DNA of 32,000 nt from an uncultured archaeon. GTDB lineage: Archaea > Iainarchaeota > Iainarchaeia > Iainarchaeales > DATDZZ01. The notes beneath the pieces are model-generated. The model worked only from the letters and a program-made list of their open reading frames with translations. It was not told where the DNA came from and ran no database searches. The translations under genes were made by a program, and so were the position numbers. Numbering within the stretch: position 1 is the stretch's first letter; each line of letters begins with the position of its first letter. Below, one piece after another: positions 4,465-13,725 of the stretch. The stretch lies in the NCBI GenBank assembly GCA_964373795.1, contig CAYJVY010000004.1, positions 30,001-62,000 of the forward strand, read 5' to 3'.

Positions 4465-4540
4465 ATTTAAATATTTTTCTTTGTGTTAATACGTATATCA
4501 TTGGAAGTTATATTGCTGTTTTTTATTCCGAGTGTTGTTA

Positions 4541-4747
4541 ATGGTTAAACTAACTAGATTTGAAGTCACTAGATTGATTAGTGCTAGAGCAGTTCAATTG
4601 GCATTGGGAGCGCCTCAATTAGTTCAAGCTGAAGGAAATATTTCAATGGAAGACATAGCTAAACTTGAATTAAAGGAAAAGGTTTTACCTTTATCTGTTT
4701 TAAGGCAGCTTCCAACTGGGCAAATTCAAAGAATTGAAGTAATGTAA
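4541..4747 (+). CDS. rpoK: DNA-directed RNA polymerase subunit K (Rpo6 / Rpb6 homologue)
   Basis: LTRFEVTRLISARAVQLALGAPQLV matches the conserved Rpb6/RpoK core. The ATG at 4541 is preferred over the track's GTG at 4532. Confidence 0.9.
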   Translation: MVKLTRFEVTRLISARAVQLALGAPQLVQAEGNISMEDIAKLELKEKVLPLSVLRQLPTGQIQRIEVM

Positions 4748-4756
4748 AGTGATTTA

Positions 4757-4948
4757 ATGGGTAAAGCAGTTCCAAAAATAATTAAAAGCCGTGCAGAGTA
4801 TTTATTAAAAAAATTTCCTGAAAAATTTTCTAAAGACTTTGCAAAAAACAAGTTATCTTTAACTGAATTACATTTACCTTTATCACCTGTTTCAAGAAAC
4901 ATTCTCGCAGCTTTTATTGGAAGACAAAAAGCAAAAGAACAAGTTTAA
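4757..4948 (+). CDS. rps17e: 30S ribosomal protein eS17 (S17e)
   Basis: MGKAVPKIIKSRAEYLLKKFPEKFSKDFAKNK...SRNILAAFIGR follows the archaeal S17e pattern, and the 63-aa size is typical. Confidence 0.85.
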   Translation: MGKAVPKIIKSRAEYLLKKFPEKFSKDFAKNKLSLTELHLPLSPVSRNILAAFIGRQKAKEQV

Positions 4949-4999
4949 CCTAATTTGAAAACATTTTTATTTTTCTTCAATTTTGAAGTGGATAAATAA

Positions 5000-5446
5000 A
5001 TGAGTAAATTAAAACTTTCAAGTCCTTTTTTTGCAAATAATGCAAGAATTCCAGACAAATTTACTTGTAAAGGAGTAAATGTAAATCCCTTGCTAGAAAT
5101 TGAAGGAGTTCCTGAAAACACTAAAAGTTTTGCATTAATTGTTGACGATCCAGATGCTCCAATGAAGACATGGGTTCACTGGGTTTTATGGAATATTTCT
5201 CCAAGCACTAAAAAAATTGAAGAAAACTCTGTTCCAAAAGAAGCAATGCAAGGGGTAACAGATTTTGGTGAAAACAGGTATGGCGGGCCATGTCCTCCAA
5301 GCGGAACTCACAGGTATTTCTTTAAATTATATGCATTAAATTCAACTCTAAATATTTCAAAGAATTCAAAAAAAGAAGATTTAGAAAAAGCAATGCAAAG
5401 CCATATTTTAGCTCAAACTCAATTAATTGGTTTATACAGCAAATAA
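5000..5446 (+). CDS. PEBP family protein (YbhB/YbcL-type phosphatidylethanolamine-binding protein)
   Basis: IVDDPDAP...WVHWVLWNI...YGGPCPPSGTHRYFFKLYAL is the PEBP signature. Confidence 0.9.
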   Translation: MSKLKLSSPFFANNARIPDKFTCKGVNVNPLLEIEGVPENTKSFALIVDDPDAPMKTWVHWVLWNISPSTKKIEENSVPKEAMQGVTDFGENRYGGPCPPSGTHRYFFKLYALNSTLNISKNSKKEDLEKAMQSHILAQTQLIGLYSK

Positions 5447-5555
5447 TTATTAAATTTTCAGTGCCTAAAAAAATGCCTTACAAAAACAAAACCTATTTAT
5501 AATTGACACAGTATTGTTTTTCTATGAACTTTGAATTGAAGTTATTTTCAATTGC

Positions 5556-5629
5556 CTTAATTTTTTTAATTACTTTACTTAAATCAATCAAAACAACAAT
5601 GCTCCAAATTTAATATTAGTAATACTATA
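5556..5629 (-). repeat. Inverted, non-functional copy of the cca promoter-proximal region plus the first 15 codons (copy A of a 74-bp inverted repeat)
   Basis: The reverse complement of 5556-5629 equals 11564-11637 at 73 of 74 positions. The single mismatch (5598 versus 11595) turns the ATG into ATT. Weaker similarity continues for about 20 nt further. Confidence 0.95.
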
Positions 5630-5964
5630 TTCCTAAATTTAAGTTTGAAACTTCTTCATTTATTTCAAAAATTCTTGCAAAAATGGGGATGCCTACAGCT
5701 TTTTCTGCTGAAGCAGATTTTTCTGGAATTGATGGATCAAAAAATCTTAGTATTAATGAAGTAATTCACAAAGCTTTTGTTGAAGTGAATGAGGAAGGAA
5801 CAGAAGCAGCTGCAGCAACTGCTGTTACAATTGGGATAACTTCTGTTGGCCCACCATTAAATGAATTTAGAGCAGATCATCCATTTATTTTCTTAATTCA
5901 AGAAAAAGAAACTGGAAGCATTTTGTTTTTAGGAAAAGTTGTTGACCCAACTCAAACCAATTAA
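5623..5964 (+). pseudogene. Serpin gene remnant: only the C-terminal ~113 codons, including the reactive-centre loop
   Basis: The frame opens at 5623 and reads IPKFKFETSSFISKILAKMGMPTAFSAEADFSGI...VIHKAFVEVNEEGTEAAAATAV...FRADHPFIFLIQEKETGSILFLGKVVDP. These are the serpin hinge/RCL and C-terminal signatures. About 270 N-terminal residues of a normal serpin are missing. The upstream sequence is the cca-derived repeat. Confidence 0.85.
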
Positions 5965-7688
5965 ATTAATTTTTTGCTTACGTAAACTCCGTCTTGAGTA
6001 TAACCAAATTTTTTATAGTATGCTCGAGCACCAATTCCTGAAATAATGCATAACTTTTTTGCATCAAATTTTTCTCTAGAAATTTTTTCAGCTTCTTCTA
6101 AAAGCTTTTGTCCAAAACCTTTATGTTGAACTGCATCAAAACTTTTTTCTCCTAAAGCAAGTGCTTGACCATAAACATGCAGTTCTCGAATTCCTAAAGT
6201 GTTTTCAGTTATTTCTTTCCTAAAAGGCTTGAATGGAATTCGCAATCTGCAGAAACCTAAAAGCAAGTCATTTACAGTATCTTCAACTGAAATAAAGATT
6301 TCTTCAGAATTATTTGCTTCAAAAGATTCACTTAATATTTTCACTGCATTGAAATCAATTTCTTTTCCTTTTGGTTCTCTGCATCTAATGCATTTACATT
6401 TAATTCCAAGCTCTTTTTGCTTTAATTCAACGAATTGCCTTAAATTAGTGTTTTCAACTCCTGCTTCTGTTTGATTAGTTGGGATATCTCGTTGAATTCT
6501 CATTACTCTGCAATATTTTGGAATAAATCTTTTTCCTTCAGCAATTATTTTAGCTGCTTGTTCAGTTGAAATTGGATTAAATAATCCTTTTTCCCATAAT
6601 TGATGTAACCCTGTTCCTTGTAAAACCATGCAAGGATAAATCTTTAACGAGTCAGGCTTGAAGTCAGGGTTTGAAAATAATTCTTTAAATTCTTGGACGT
6701 TTTTCTCAGGAGTGGAATCAGGCAAGCCAGGCATTAAATGATAACCTATTTTTAAAAACGAGTCACGCATTAATTGAGTTGCTTTAATTGAGTCTTCAAC
6801 TGAATGCCCTCTATTTGTTTTCTTCAAAATTTTGTTTTCAAGCGATTGAACCCCTATTTCAACTCTAGTAGTTCCTAATTCAAGCATTTCATTAATATGT
6901 TTTTCAAAGCAATTATCTGGCTTTGTTTCAATGCATAAAGCAACACATTTAATTCTGCTTTCAAATTCATTTCTTTTTTGCTCGAATTTTAAATCCGCTT
7001 CTCCTTTTAATGTTAAAAGCTTTGAATTAATTCTTTCATTTCTTTCCTTTGACTTAATGTCTTGAAAAGGCAATTCAAAGAATTCATTAAATTTTTTAAA
7101 ATCAATTTCATTTTTATTGTAAAAGGTTTCAGAAAAATCATTCAATGCTTTAAAAATGTTTGAAACAAATTCAATTTGATAAGTTCTAGACATTGCAGGA
7201 AAAGTTCCTCCTTGAATTATTACTTCAATTTTTTCAGGGCAATGCCCTAAAGCAGTATAAGTTTCTAATCTGTTCATTGCAATTAAATAAGAATCATAAT
7301 TATTGCGAATTGCTCTCATTGTTGAAGGTTCTTTTCCTGTATAACTTTGAGGTACGTCTCCAAACGGAGAATTCAATCCGCCTGGACAAAAAATGCAAGT
7401 GCCATGAGGACAATTAAATGGTTTTGTCATGCAAGCAATTGTTGCAACTCCTGAAATAGTTCGCACAGGTTTCATTAACAAGATTTCTTTAACCTTTTTT
7501 CCACTGCCTTCAGAAAAAGAAAAAATACTTGAATTAGTTGGAACTTTTTCAATTCCTATTTCAACACACAGAGTTCTTTTTCGTTTACTGAATTGATCTC
7601 TATTACTTATTTTTCCTTCTTGAATTTCTTTAATTATTTGTTCACTAAATTTTTTCAGTTTCAAGTCAAGCAATGCAATTGAAGTCAT
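5961..7688 (-). CDS. elp3: Elp3 homologue (radical SAM plus GNAT acetyltransferase; tRNA U34 carboxymethylation)
   Basis: The radical SAM cluster region is CPHGTCIFCPGG. The TIM-barrel core has VEIGVQS. The C-terminal GNAT domain has QHKGFGQKLLEEAEKI. The length is 575 aa. Confidence 0.92.
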   Translation of the reverse strand: MTSIALLDLKLKKFSEQIIKEIQEGKISNRDQFSKRKRTLCVEIGIEKVPTNSSIFSFSEGSGKKVKEILLMKPVRTISGVATIACMTKPFNCPHGTCIFCPGGLNSPFGDVPQSYTGKEPSTMRAIRNNYDSYLIAMNRLETYTALGHCPEKIEVIIQGGTFPAMSRTYQIEFVSNIFKALNDFSETFYNKNEIDFKKFNEFFELPFQDIKSKERNERINSKLLTLKGEADLKFEQKRNEFESRIKCVALCIETKPDNCFEKHINEMLELGTTRVEIGVQSLENKILKKTNRGHSVEDSIKATQLMRDSFLKIGYHLMPGLPDSTPEKNVQEFKELFSNPDFKPDSLKIYPCMVLQGTGLHQLWEKGLFNPISTEQAAKIIAEGKRFIPKYCRVMRIQRDIPTNQTEAGVENTNLRQFVELKQKELGIKCKCIRCREPKGKEIDFNAVKILSESFEANNSEEIFISVEDTVNDLLLGFCRLRIPFKPFRKEITENTLGIRELHVYGQALALGEKSFDAVQHKGFGQKLLEEAEKISREKFDAKKLCIISGIGARAYYKKFGYTQDGVYVSKKLI

Positions 7689-8590: not shown

Positions 8591-9190
8591 TTGACTAAAA
8601 ACATTGAAGAAATCAGGTTTGAAATGGTTAAAAAAAGGCATTCAGAAAGCCTTTCAAAAGCCATTAAAGAAGGAAAAGCAGATGAAAGAGTTATTCCTTT
8701 CCTGAAAAAAATTGCTGAAACACAAAATTTTTTTACTTCTTCTAGTTGTTGTGGAAGAATTTTATTACTCGGCTTGAAAGGAAAAGGATTAAAAAAAGAC
8801 TCTTATTTTCACTTCAAAAAACATAGAACTGTTTCATTCAAAGAAATTTGGGGTTCTCTTCAAAAAAAATCAATCGGAGTTTTATGGTTTAAAATAGAGC
8901 CATTCATTTTACACATTGGAGCAAAAAATTTAGAGAACACTGAAAGAATTTTAAAAGTAATGAAGGAAAGCGGAATAAAAAGAGGAGGAATAATTGTTAC
9001 AAAAAAAGGAAAATTCTTAACAGAATTACTTGGCACTCAAATGCTTTCAGTTCCAGTAAAAGAAAAAAACAAAATCTTAATTGAAAAAAAATTCTTAAAA
9101 TACTTAATTAAAATTGCAAACAAAAAATTAATTGAAAACTACAATTTATTGAAAAAATTTGAAGAACAATGCTTAAAAGAATTCGACTAA
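8591..9190 (+). CDS. taw3: tRNA wyosine-derivative methyltransferase Taw3/TYW3 family
   Basis: FFTSSSCCGRILLL matches the TYW3 family hallmark (T/S)SSC(S/C)GRI. The ~200-aa size is typical. The start codon is TTG. Confidence 0.75.
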   Translation: MTKNIEEIRFEMVKKRHSESLSKAIKEGKADERVIPFLKKIAETQNFFTSSSCCGRILLLGLKGKGLKKDSYFHFKKHRTVSFKEIWGSLQKKSIGVLWFKIEPFILHIGAKNLENTERILKVMKESGIKRGGIIVTKKGKFLTELLGTQMLSVPVKEKNKILIEKKFLKYLIKIANKKLIENYNLLKKFEEQCLKEFD

Positions 9191-9372
9191 CACGCCGTTC
9201 AGCCGGCGAGGCTGAGTCAAAAGCCGGCGAGGCTGAGTGTTCGTGTTGGCATCGCGCTTGCCGCGCAAGACGGCAGCTGAAAGTCGATGTCGGCCTCGTG
9301 TCGACGCACGAGACATCGCAGCCGACAAAGCTGAGGCAAGCGTCGAACGTGAAGCCGACGAAGCTGAACCCC
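9191..9372 (+). other. GC-rich (63%) repeat- and hairpin-dense intergenic island; candidate structured ncRNA or GC-cluster element of unknown class
   Basis: I counted 113 G/C in positions 9191-9370. There are four direct copies of AGCCGRCRARGCTGAR at 9201, 9222, 9320 and 9353. An interrupted hairpin spans 9285-9318 and a second hairpin spans 9257-9269. A closing helix pairs GTTCAGC (9197-9203) with GCTGAAC (9363-9369). The strand is assigned only because both neighbouring genes are on +. Confidence 0.5.
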
Positions 9373-9399
9373 TCATATGATTTGAGAAGTGAAACTTAA

Positions 9400-9921
9400 A
9401 TGAATAAAAGATTGTTTTTAGCAATTAATTTGCCTTTAGAATTAAAGGAAAAAATTTTTGAAACTTTTTCGAAAAAATTGCCAAAAGATTTAAAGATTGT
9501 GAAAAAAGAAAACATTCATTTAACACTGCTTTTTATAGGGTATTATCCTGAAGAAAAAATCGCAGAATTAAAGGAAAAACTTTCAGAAATCGAATTCAAT
9601 TCATTTGAATTAAAGTTAAACTCTCTTGGAACTTTTAATGGAAGAGTTATCTGGCTTGGAGCTGTAAAAGGAAAAGAAAAATTCAAGGAATTAAGTGAAA
9701 AAATTCAGGAAAAAATCGGAGTAAAAGATAATAGAATTTCCGCTCATTTAACTTTGGCTAGAAACAAGTTTTTGAAATTAAAAGAAATAAAAGAGTTGAT
9801 TTCAAAAATTAATGCAGGCTTTAATGAAACAATTTTAGTGAAAAGCTTTGAATTAATGGAATCCAAATTAACTCCTAAAGGATCAATTTATTTTATTGAA
9901 GCCAGTTTTAAGTTAACATAA
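9400..9921 (+). CDS. thpR: RNA 2',3'-cyclic phosphodiesterase / 2'-5' RNA ligase family (2H phosphoesterase, ThpR/LigT)
   Basis: Two HxT motifs are present at the canonical spacing: IHLTLLFIG and AHLTLAR. The length is 173 aa. Confidence 0.88.
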   Translation: MNKRLFLAINLPLELKEKIFETFSKKLPKDLKIVKKENIHLTLLFIGYYPEEKIAELKEKLSEIEFNSFELKLNSLGTFNGRVIWLGAVKGKEKFKELSEKIQEKIGVKDNRISAHLTLARNKFLKLKEIKELISKINAGFNETILVKSFELMESKLTPKGSIYFIEASFKLT

Positions 9922-13597: not shown

Positions 13598-13648
13598 AGT
13601 ATAACCAACTAATAAAATTTTTTAAAAATTTTGCGAACGACGTGCAAA

Positions 13649-13723
13649 CGAGCCTGGTGGGATTCGAACCCACGATCCCGTCGTCCGAAGCGACGTGCGA
13701 TATCCAGACTACGCTACAGGCCC
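13649..13723 (-). tRNA. tRNA-Arg (anticodon UCG); the 3' CCA is not encoded
   Basis: The minus-strand sequence folds as a cloverleaf. The acceptor stem is GGGCCTG/CAGGCTC with one G-U pair. The anticodon stem CGTCG/CGACG carries the loop CTTCGGA, giving anticodon TCG. The T arm is GTGGG-TTCGAAT-CCCAC. The discriminator is G, followed by TTTG rather than CCA. No intron is present. Confidence 0.9.
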
Positions 13724-13725
13724 AC

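Follow-up and report, generated by a model that had tools for sequence, protein, structure and literature searches.

A GC-rich, repeat-bearing island in the taw3-thpR gap of an uncultured Iainarchaeales archaeon: a lineage-specific insertion and possible small mobile element

We analysed a 32,000-nucleotide stretch of DNA (hereafter the window) from an uncultured archaeon of the Iainarchaeales (GenBank assembly GCA_964373795.1, contig CAYJVY010000004.1, positions 30,001 to 62,000 of the forward strand), in which a short GC-rich island fills most of the gap between the genes taw3 and thpR. The taw3 stop codon (TAA, 9188-9190) and the thpR start codon (ATG, 9400) enclose a gap of 209 nt with 58% GC. 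Positions 9191-9370 hold 113 G or C in 180 nt (62.8%), compared with 29.0% GC in the remaining 32-kb window, 26.7% in taw3 and 25.7% in thpR. No other 150-nt bin across the 32 kb exceeds 45% GC, and a scan at 80 nt found one further GC peak in the window, the tRNA-Arg gene at 13648-13724. The left edge of the island is placed at 9191 from the ends of two Logan contigs at 9220, as discussed below, while the right edge is approximate and taken from the change in composition. The borders, counts, repeats and hairpins listed by an initial annotation of this DNA were all verified on the sequence. The features of the locus are the following.

8591-9190, + strand: taw3, coding for a TYW3 methyltransferase (Pfam PF02676 TYW3, E 9e-36), with a native C-terminus that is collinear with those of the related loci L032, L026, L023 and others
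9169-9399, + strand: 76-aa open reading frame (ORF) bridging the taw3 end and the thpR start, with no homologues
9187-9249, + strand: 63-nt hairpin predicted by folding, made of motif copies 1 and 2 plus AACACG/CGTGTT and spanning the taw3 stop codon
9191-9372, no strand: GC-rich insertion, 182 nt, 63% GC, recognized by its composition and its absence from 51 syntenic loci
9197-9203, + strand: left arm GTTCAGC of a 7-bp terminal inverted repeat, partner of 9363-9369
9201-9217, + strand: motif copy 1, AGCCGGCGAGGCTGAGT; with its flanks included it forms a 6-bp stem TCAGCC/GGCTGA
9222-9238, + strand: motif copy 2, identical to copy 1 at 17 of 17 nt and in tandem with it at a period of 21 nt
9257-9269, + strand: small hairpin CTTGC-cgc-GCAAG
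9285-9318, + strand: interrupted 6+6 bp hairpin CGATGT-cggc-CTCGTG-tcgacg-CACGAG-ACATCG, 34 nt
9320-9336, + strand: motif copy 3, AGCCGACAAAGCTGAGG, read directly from the sequence, with a broken mini-hairpin
9353-9369, + strand: motif copy 4, AGCCGACGAAGCTGAAC, 33 nt after copy 3, with a broken mini-hairpin
9363-9369, + strand: right arm GCTGAAC of the terminal inverted repeat, partner of 9197-9203
9373-9399, + strand: AT-rich rest of the gap with a Shine-Dalgarno-like GAAGTGA at 9386-9392, compared with the short spacers of relatives
9400-9921, + strand: thpR, coding for a LigT-like RNA 2',3'-cyclic phosphodiesterase (LigT_PEase / 2'-5' RNA ligase; Pfam PF02834, E 3e-21)

The start of taw3 is uncertain: a TTG at 8591 would give 199 aa, the public call (P0001) has 188 aa from the ATG at 8624, and homologues align from about residue 9. 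A recorded protein, P0110, is 100% identical to the thpR product.

The Taw3 protein places the window among DPANN archaea that the sources label Diapherotrites or 'ainarchaeum', the nearest homologues being 55-60% identical. Scanning the JGI metagenomes with a Taw3 alignment yielded 80 loci. In 51 related DPANN loci (Diapherotrites/Iainarchaeota-like), thpR comes after taw3 on the same strand. The estimated gap between the two genes is at most 12 nt in 41 of these loci, 23-98 nt in 8 and gene-sized in 2. None of the 51 has a gap that is GC-rich relative to its own genome, and the largest non-gene gap is 98 nt. Two Logan loci (L023 and L026) show the gene order of the window, namely Elp3, a hypothetical protein, Taw3, ThpR, a T2SSE ATPase and the CCA-adding enzyme; their taw3 and thpR overlap by 4 nt, and the two genes lie 4 nt apart in L027. 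The closest relatives (L032, L033, L112 and L113-115; Taw3 58-60% identical) likewise have no GC-rich DNA at the junction, which reads TGA-TTCA-ATG in L032 and L033 (a 4-nt gap), is again a 4-nt gap in L113-115, and is a 76-nt AT-rich gap in L112. Since the gaps of relatives are mostly short and never GC-rich, the island is a lineage-specific insertion.

The C-terminus of the window Taw3 (...KKFEEQCLKEFD) is collinear with that of L032 (...KKFEKKCLKDLE) and ends at the same position at full length; the insert must therefore begin at or beside 9191. At the other border, the bases just before the thpR ATG (GAAGTGAAACTTAA) resemble the short spacers bearing a Shine-Dalgarno sequence in relatives, for example TAA-GTGCTTAA-ATGAATAAAAGG in L064, and at least the final 11-15 nt of 9373-9399 are probably the native taw3-thpR spacer. 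Taken together, the comparison of sequences identifies the island as a lineage-specific insertion directly 3' of the taw3 stop and upstream of the native ribosome-binding spacer. The taw3-thpR pair is ancestral and tightly coupled, with the island as a late intruder. The initial annotation had found it suggestive that the island lies between a tRNA-modification gene and an RNA-end-processing gene; the ancestral coupling of these two genes explains that neighborhood.

The same junction shows other irregularities in the lineage. In L112 800-900 (ENA ERZ27254752 k141_27650), which holds the closest Taw3 relative at 60% identity, the thpR start ATGAACCTGCGATTGTTT occurs twice, once 5 nt past the taw3 stop and once at the real start, with about 55 nt of AT-rich sequence between the copies. 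This looks like an independent duplication or insertion at the same spot. The locus L024 (GCA_028713935.1, Candidatus Ainarchaeum sp.) has a 600-nt gap at 1904-2500 with a minus-strand 148-aa ORF that has no Pfam match on record, and L095 has 835 nt between taw3 and thpR (5206-6040). Judging from the inserts in L024 and L095, the junction seems to have been hit repeatedly.

The left junction of the island is real, as it is seen in two separate sequencing runs. P0001 is encoded on one Logan contig in each of the runs ERR3478686 and ERR4904391; these contigs match the window with 100% identity, one over 1864 nt from 7357 and the other over 1290 nt from 7931, and both end at 9220. They run unbroken through 1.3-1.9 kb of upstream sequence, pass the taw3 stop and end 30 nt into the island. 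The k used for Logan contigs is 31, and where a unique flank runs into sequence that also occurs elsewhere, such a contig breaks off k-1 = 30 nt inside the shared portion. With both ends at 9220, which is 30 nt past 9190, the shared sequence would begin at 9191, immediately behind the stop codon and at the left edge of the GC-rich block. Neither a random polymorphism nor a gap in coverage would be likely to hit this base in both runs. The shared end point suggests instead that the 31-mer 9191-9221 (CACGCCGTTCAGCCGGCGAGGCTGAGTCAAA) has a second upstream context in both samples, be it a further copy within the genome, one carried by a related organism, or a donor.

The island is built around a repeated motif, AGCCGRCRARGCTGA, with four copies that all lie within it, against 0.07 expected in the window. 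In 300 dinucleotide shuffles of the island, no 15-mer ever attained four copies. Two tandem, partly palindromic units of 16-21 nt stand at the left, followed by a unique core and by two units near the right end, all in direct orientation; the longest internal repeat is 17 nt, with none of 20 nt or more. The arms GTTCAGC and GCTGAAC sit 6 and 3 nt inside the GC-rich block, and the terminal inverted repeat that they form arises because the palindromic motif lies near both island ends. Within the 16-nt motif, all differences of copies 3 and 4 from copies 1 and 2 are G-to-A changes. At motif position 10, copies 3 and 4 thereby have C-A in place of the C4-G10 pair, and nothing compensates for the loss, indicating that the mini-hairpin is not being conserved. 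The initial annotation was therefore right about four copies, the first two identical, at these coordinates, and its description of each copy as a mini-hairpin holds for copies 1 and 2 but not for copies 3 and 4. The G-to-A-only divergence looks like the effect of AT-biased mutation on GC-rich DNA that was imported.

We compared the predicted folding of the island with that of dinucleotide shuffles. For the whole island, z is -1.3 to -1.4 on the + strand (-1.41 and -1.27) and about -0.5 (-0.51) on the - strand. The hairpin at 9187-9249 is the only local structure that beats the shuffles (-30.6 kcal/mol, z = -3.85, 0 of 200 shuffles as good; z = -2.67 on the minus strand), and it owes its stability to the tandem duplication of the palindromic unit. 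The interrupted 34-nt hairpin has z = -1.38, which is chance level for its composition, the small CTTGC/GCAAG hairpin has z = -1.34, and the 3' third of the island has z = +0.2. These two hairpins and the 7-bp GTTCAGC/GCTGAAC pair are present as first annotated. The accompanying phrase 'dense in hairpins' is accurate as to their presence, but apart from 9187-9249 they are mostly a chance outcome at 63% GC.

Searches for known RNA families gave a similar picture. A cmscan of 9050-9520 against Rfam on both strands returned, at E <= 10, only three weak matches, none at its gathering threshold. Two of them, SAM-II (18.3 bits, threshold 44) and U4 (14.2 bits, threshold 46), fall within the AT-rich flank on the thpR side, and the third, to the trypanosomatid mitochondrial LSU rRNA (9050-9289, 11.8 bits versus 60), is driven by the AT-rich taw3 flank. 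Over the whole window, the sole match at Rfam gathering thresholds is the tRNA-Arg (13649-13723). ARAGORN and Rfam RF00005 likewise detected no tRNA, split tRNA or tmRNA in the island, and only the tRNA-Arg(TCG) at 13648-13724. The box C pattern RTGATGA does not occur at up to one mismatch on either strand of 9150-9420, and the five CTGA (box D) in that interval all belong to the repeat or lie close to it. The absence of tRNA and C/D-box signatures reported at the outset is thus reproduced by Rfam, ARAGORN and the box pattern.

The identity that we consider most likely, at a probability of roughly 0.45, is a small non-autonomous mobile element or its decaying relic, lodged as a co-transcribed spacer between two cistrons. 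The palindromic units near both ends, the terminal inverted repeat, though short, the assembly break at the border, the absence of any coding homologue and the G-to-A decay all argue for this reading. By analogy, the comparable kinds would be miniature transposable elements with inverted repeats (MITEs), units of the repetitive extragenic palindromic (REP) type with their bacterial interspersed mosaic elements (BIMEs), and GC clusters. The analysis establishes that the island is an insertion, that its left junction exists, that its repeat is significant and that it bears no signature of a known RNA; mobility, multi-copy status, co-transcription and any effect of the hairpin are inferred. The initial annotation offered three readings, of which a selfish element of the GC-cluster type fits best, if unproven for an island that stands as a single orphan copy: the foreign composition, the palindromic repeats and the apparent second context in two metagenomes speak for it.

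About 182 bp of apparently non-coding DNA of foreign composition has inserted right after the taw3 stop, splitting the taw3-thpR pair, and under the mobile-element reading it would now be carried in the taw3-thpR transcript as an intercistronic spacer. Co-transcription is the most likely arrangement because the flanking genes are co-directional and no promoter or terminator was found between them; a bacterial-type scan detected no promoter-like site and no + strand terminator-like site in the island, archaeal promoters lying outside the coverage of that scan. ThpR would be translated from its own retained Shine-Dalgarno-like site. If any part acts at the RNA level, it is likely to be the 63-nt hairpin that starts at the taw3 stop, which could for instance shield the upstream mRNA or uncouple translation.

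Several observations weigh against this reading. Only one copy of the island is known. The window holds no second copy, blastn (word size 7) and nhmmer searches of 680 kb of related loci matched nothing beyond the flanking taw3 and thpR, leaving the island without a homologue in that related DPANN DNA, and a two-motif pattern had 20 matches among 185,579 GTDB species representatives (the window's own genome not being one of them), none in DPANN and none related to the island. At 7 bp, the terminal inverted repeat is short. No target-site duplication is visible, since 9191-9372 has no direct repeat at its flanks and only TAA recurs (9188-9190 and 9397-9399). No transposase, integrase or RAYT-like gene is found among the 24 annotated ORFs (1193-27911). 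The second context of the 31-mer is deduced from two assembly contig ends, not from reads or from the graph. Finally, the copies are spaced by 21 and 33 nt, both divisible by 3, and the motif encodes acidic repeats of the ADEAE type elsewhere; these two facts leave room for an origin as a coding fragment.

Two candidate traces of insertion were rejected. A 13-nt direct repeat (9168-9180 and 9399-9411) is native taw3 and thpR coding sequence, found also in L032, and was discarded as a target-site duplication. Upstream of thpR, an 'EVKLK-stop' could be read as a remnant of the taw3 end, but the likeness is confined to the last 9 nt and the stretch was kept as native spacer.

Among the alternatives, the one that survives best, which we nevertheless regard as unlikely, is a one-off foreign fragment that was captured by illegitimate recombination and is now decaying, without being mobile itself. 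Possible sources are a GC-richer host, a neighbor, a plasmid or a virus, and the fragment may come from the 3' end of a gene whose product has an acidic low-complexity tail. The extreme contrast between 63% and 29% GC is in line with capture, and so is the orphan status of the island everywhere we searched. A 26-mer from its 5' end has no match in the JGI metagenomes, seven patterns recovered from IMG/VR one coding repeat and one 22-nt chance match without extension, and distant blastn against phages and plasmids gave only chance matches of 22-32 nt. A donor within the shared community would likewise account for the graph branch at 9191; DPANN archaea live on hosts to which they attach.

A coding origin of such a fragment has support in the motif itself, which reads as the codon string A-[GD]-[EK]-A-E. 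Fourteen of the 20 two-motif matches in the GTDB representatives fall in acidic coding-type repeats (ADEAE or ADKAE type); the remaining six, outside such repeats, are short repeats in tandem or dispersed form and come from three actinomycetes, an Acetobacteraceae metagenome-assembled genome (MAG), a Limnocylindrales MAG and a Shapirobacteria MAG. The copy spacings are multiples of 3; translation gives ...DIAADKAEASVEREADEAEPLI-stop in frame +1 and SAGEAESKAGEAE in frame +2, and the second half of the island has a significant period-3 GC signal (0.84 / 0.57 / 0.42). That signal is inflated by the repeat, however, and period-3 GC over the whole island is not significant (p = 0.31). A coding origin would moreover need a frameshift joining the two halves, and the six-frame translation of the island finds nothing at E <= 10 among 5.8 billion proteins, Logan assemblies included. 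Nor would a motif near both ends and a terminal inverted repeat be expected in a random genomic fragment.

In L013 1250-1340 (Candidatus Shapirobacteria, a locus of 41% GC), two copies of ACCCGTCTAGCCGACGAGGCTGAT lie 43 nt apart in AT-rich, apparently intergenic sequence of a CPR bacterium. They share their motif core with the island, which is probably a coincidence.

GC peaks in AT-rich archaea reportedly predict structured RNAs, as Klein, Misulovin and Eddy are said to have shown in 2002, and the island could accordingly be a lineage-specific structured RNA, either a recent small RNA gene on one strand or the other, or a cis-acting element in the taw3-thpR transcript. We consider this decidedly unlikely. 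In 447 kb of AT-rich related loci (at most 42% GC), the 80-nt windows lying more than 0.25 above the locus mean correspond to four tRNAs and to the end of the contig L033; since nearly all of these peaks are tRNAs, the Klein-Eddy rule works in the lineage, and the island of the window is the exception. The significantly stable 63-nt hairpin at the 5' end and the persistence of a high GC content despite AT mutation pressure also favor an RNA. Conversely, that hairpin follows automatically from the tandem duplication of a palindromic unit, the whole island folds like its shuffles, no Rfam family matches the island at E <= 10, and neither a tRNA nor a C box is present. The G-to-A changes of copies 3 and 4 break the predicted pair uncompensated. 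The island is absent from all relatives at an otherwise highly conserved junction, which leaves no conservation and no covariation to test. The unclassified structured RNA of the initial annotation is therefore disfavored. A bulge-helix-bulge intron was also rejected, as no helix exists outside the 7-bp pair.

Two of the peaks in relatives deserve description. One of the four tRNAs, at L102 14030-14117 on the - strand of a relative with 27% GC, was found by Rfam (41 bits, 88 nt) and missed by ARAGORN, and probably contains an intron. The L033 peak (2721-2849 of JGI C687J35174_10090415, 35% GC) is a contig end with 60% GC that holds two copies of a 34-nt unit, GAAAAGATTCGGCGG(C/N)GATCTGCACGATCTTCGCT; it begins inside an ORF resembling an FAD-dependent oxidoreductase and has no sequence in common with the island of the window. 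Either a second GC-rich intruder that interrupted an assembly or a chimeric contig end may account for it.

An assembly artefact, that is a chimeric join or a wrong graph path in the MAG, is very unlikely. The interior of the island and its right junction are known from the MAG sequence alone, the two Logan assemblies break 30 nt into the island, and the full-length thpR protein is on record from NCBI and not from Logan. Against an artefact, the taw3 stop and the following 30 nt of GC-rich sequence are reproduced base for base in two runs, indicating that GC-rich DNA truly follows taw3 in the organism. In addition, thpR stands in its ancestral order behind a native-looking Shine-Dalgarno spacer, and the island has no internal repeat long enough (20 nt or more) to mislead an assembler.

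We find it highly improbable that the island is a DNA-level array of protein-binding sites (iterons or operators, with AGCC-N5-GGCT dyads) belonging to a replication origin, a partition site or an attachment site, as the iteron-plus-hairpin reading of the initial annotation had it. Four direct copies of a dyad-symmetric unit of 13-16 bp would suit such an array, but the dyad is degraded in copies 3 and 4 and the motif occurs nowhere else in the window. An archaeal origin of the ORB or iteron type would adjoin orc1/cdc6 and have its AT-rich unwinding element between origin recognition box (ORB) repeats. The GC-rich island lies within a conserved pair of co-directional housekeeping genes, 6.4 kb from Orc1/Cdc6, lacks an AT-rich unwinding element, and has no integrase, Rep or Par gene among the 24 annotated ORFs. 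The Orc1/Cdc6 gene itself (1633-2760, - strand; domains Cdc6_lid, AAA_22 and Cdc6_C) adjoins an Lrp/AsnC regulator (1193-1636). It has a 153-nt upstream gap (2761-2913), and a 535-nt AT-rich non-coding gap with many short repeats lies at 4465-4999. These flanks are candidate surroundings of a replication origin, although no clear ORB repeats were seen.

We give almost no credence to a small basic 76-aa protein translationally coupled between taw3 and thpR, and the ORF 9169-9399 is probably not a gene: it does start within the taw3 3' end, stays open through the island and has a TAA that abuts the thpR ATG, but it has no Pfam match and no homologue among the 5.8 billion proteins, its only matches among 1.84 billion representative proteins are three spurious tandem-repeat ORFs, each reached through 5-7 weak stretches, and a 61-codon open frame has a calculated chance of about 17% per frame at the island composition, with three of the six frames open.

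A bolder proposal goes beyond the island at hand and is quite unlikely as it stands. A DPANN lineage would harbor an as yet undescribed family of palindromic, GC-rich selfish elements, equivalent in archaea to the GC clusters of mitochondria, that insert directly after stop codons in tight operons and are kept more than 30 points GC-richer than their 29% GC host by mobility or gene conversion outrunning AT-biased decay; or else the island would be a lineage-specific structured RNA in the transcript of an operon for tRNA modification and RNA repair. If the island proved to be mobile and multi-copy, it would offer an initial view of small non-autonomous repeat elements within streamlined DPANN genomes, and a natural case of GC-rich DNA persisting under strong AT mutation pressure. 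As it stands, the island shows a translationally coupled gene pair tolerating a 180-nt intruder. It also cautions that a GC peak alone is insufficient to call a structured RNA gene in AT-rich archaeal MAGs, where syntenic relatives can separate conserved RNAs (here all tRNAs) from insertions.

We compared the island with several known systems. The GC-rich structured RNA genes of AT-rich archaea share with it a sharp local GC peak in an intergenic position. Those genes, however, are conserved and fold better than chance, whereas the island is absent from relatives, matches no family and folds like its shuffles, bar one hairpin derived from the repeat.

A search of one paper library for repeat elements of DPANN turned up nothing usable apart from the REPIN papers. 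REP, BIME and REPIN elements (Bertels and Rainey 2011, PMC3116915; PMC3337134) resemble the island in that short imperfect palindromic units and linkers are combined in mosaics, outside genes and often just past a stop codon, between operon genes that run in the same direction. Their stable mRNA hairpins and non-autonomous nature are counted as further likenesses. REPINs consist of two inverted REP units, are mobilized by a RAYT transposase and reach tens to hundreds of copies, whereas the island has direct units at one locus of an archaeal host; no Y1-transposase domain, RAYT or IS200/IS605 gene is found among the 24 annotated ORFs. Unlike the island, REPs do not exceed their own genome by more than 30 GC points.

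MITEs, including archaeal ones, are also non-coding and intergenic, measure 100-300 bp, fold into long hairpins, form lineage-specific families and break short-k assemblies at their borders. They have clear terminal inverted repeats, usually of at least 15 bp, together with a target-site duplication, as opposed to 7 bp and no visible duplication here, and they normally share the composition of the host, which the island does not. The palindrome-associated elements derived from IS200/IS605 (PATEs) resemble the island in lacking a target-site duplication and in carrying hairpin motifs of the same orientation near both ends. PATEs insert 3' of a short specific sequence, which for the island would be CTAA. 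In contrast to PATEs, the island has stems of only 3-6 bp, two of them decayed, no second copy from which a conserved target or cleavage site could be defined, and no TnpA or TnpB gene in the window.

The last comparison is with the GC clusters of yeast mitochondrial genomes, reportedly treated by Weiller, Schueller and Schweyen in 1989. These clusters are mitochondrial and mostly 30-60 bp long, fall into defined sequence classes with characteristic target duplications, have no sequence relation to the island and are multi-copy, whereas the island is known from one copy. Like the island, they are GC-rich palindromic selfish elements that sit between the genes of a very AT-rich genome and can form tandem arrays.

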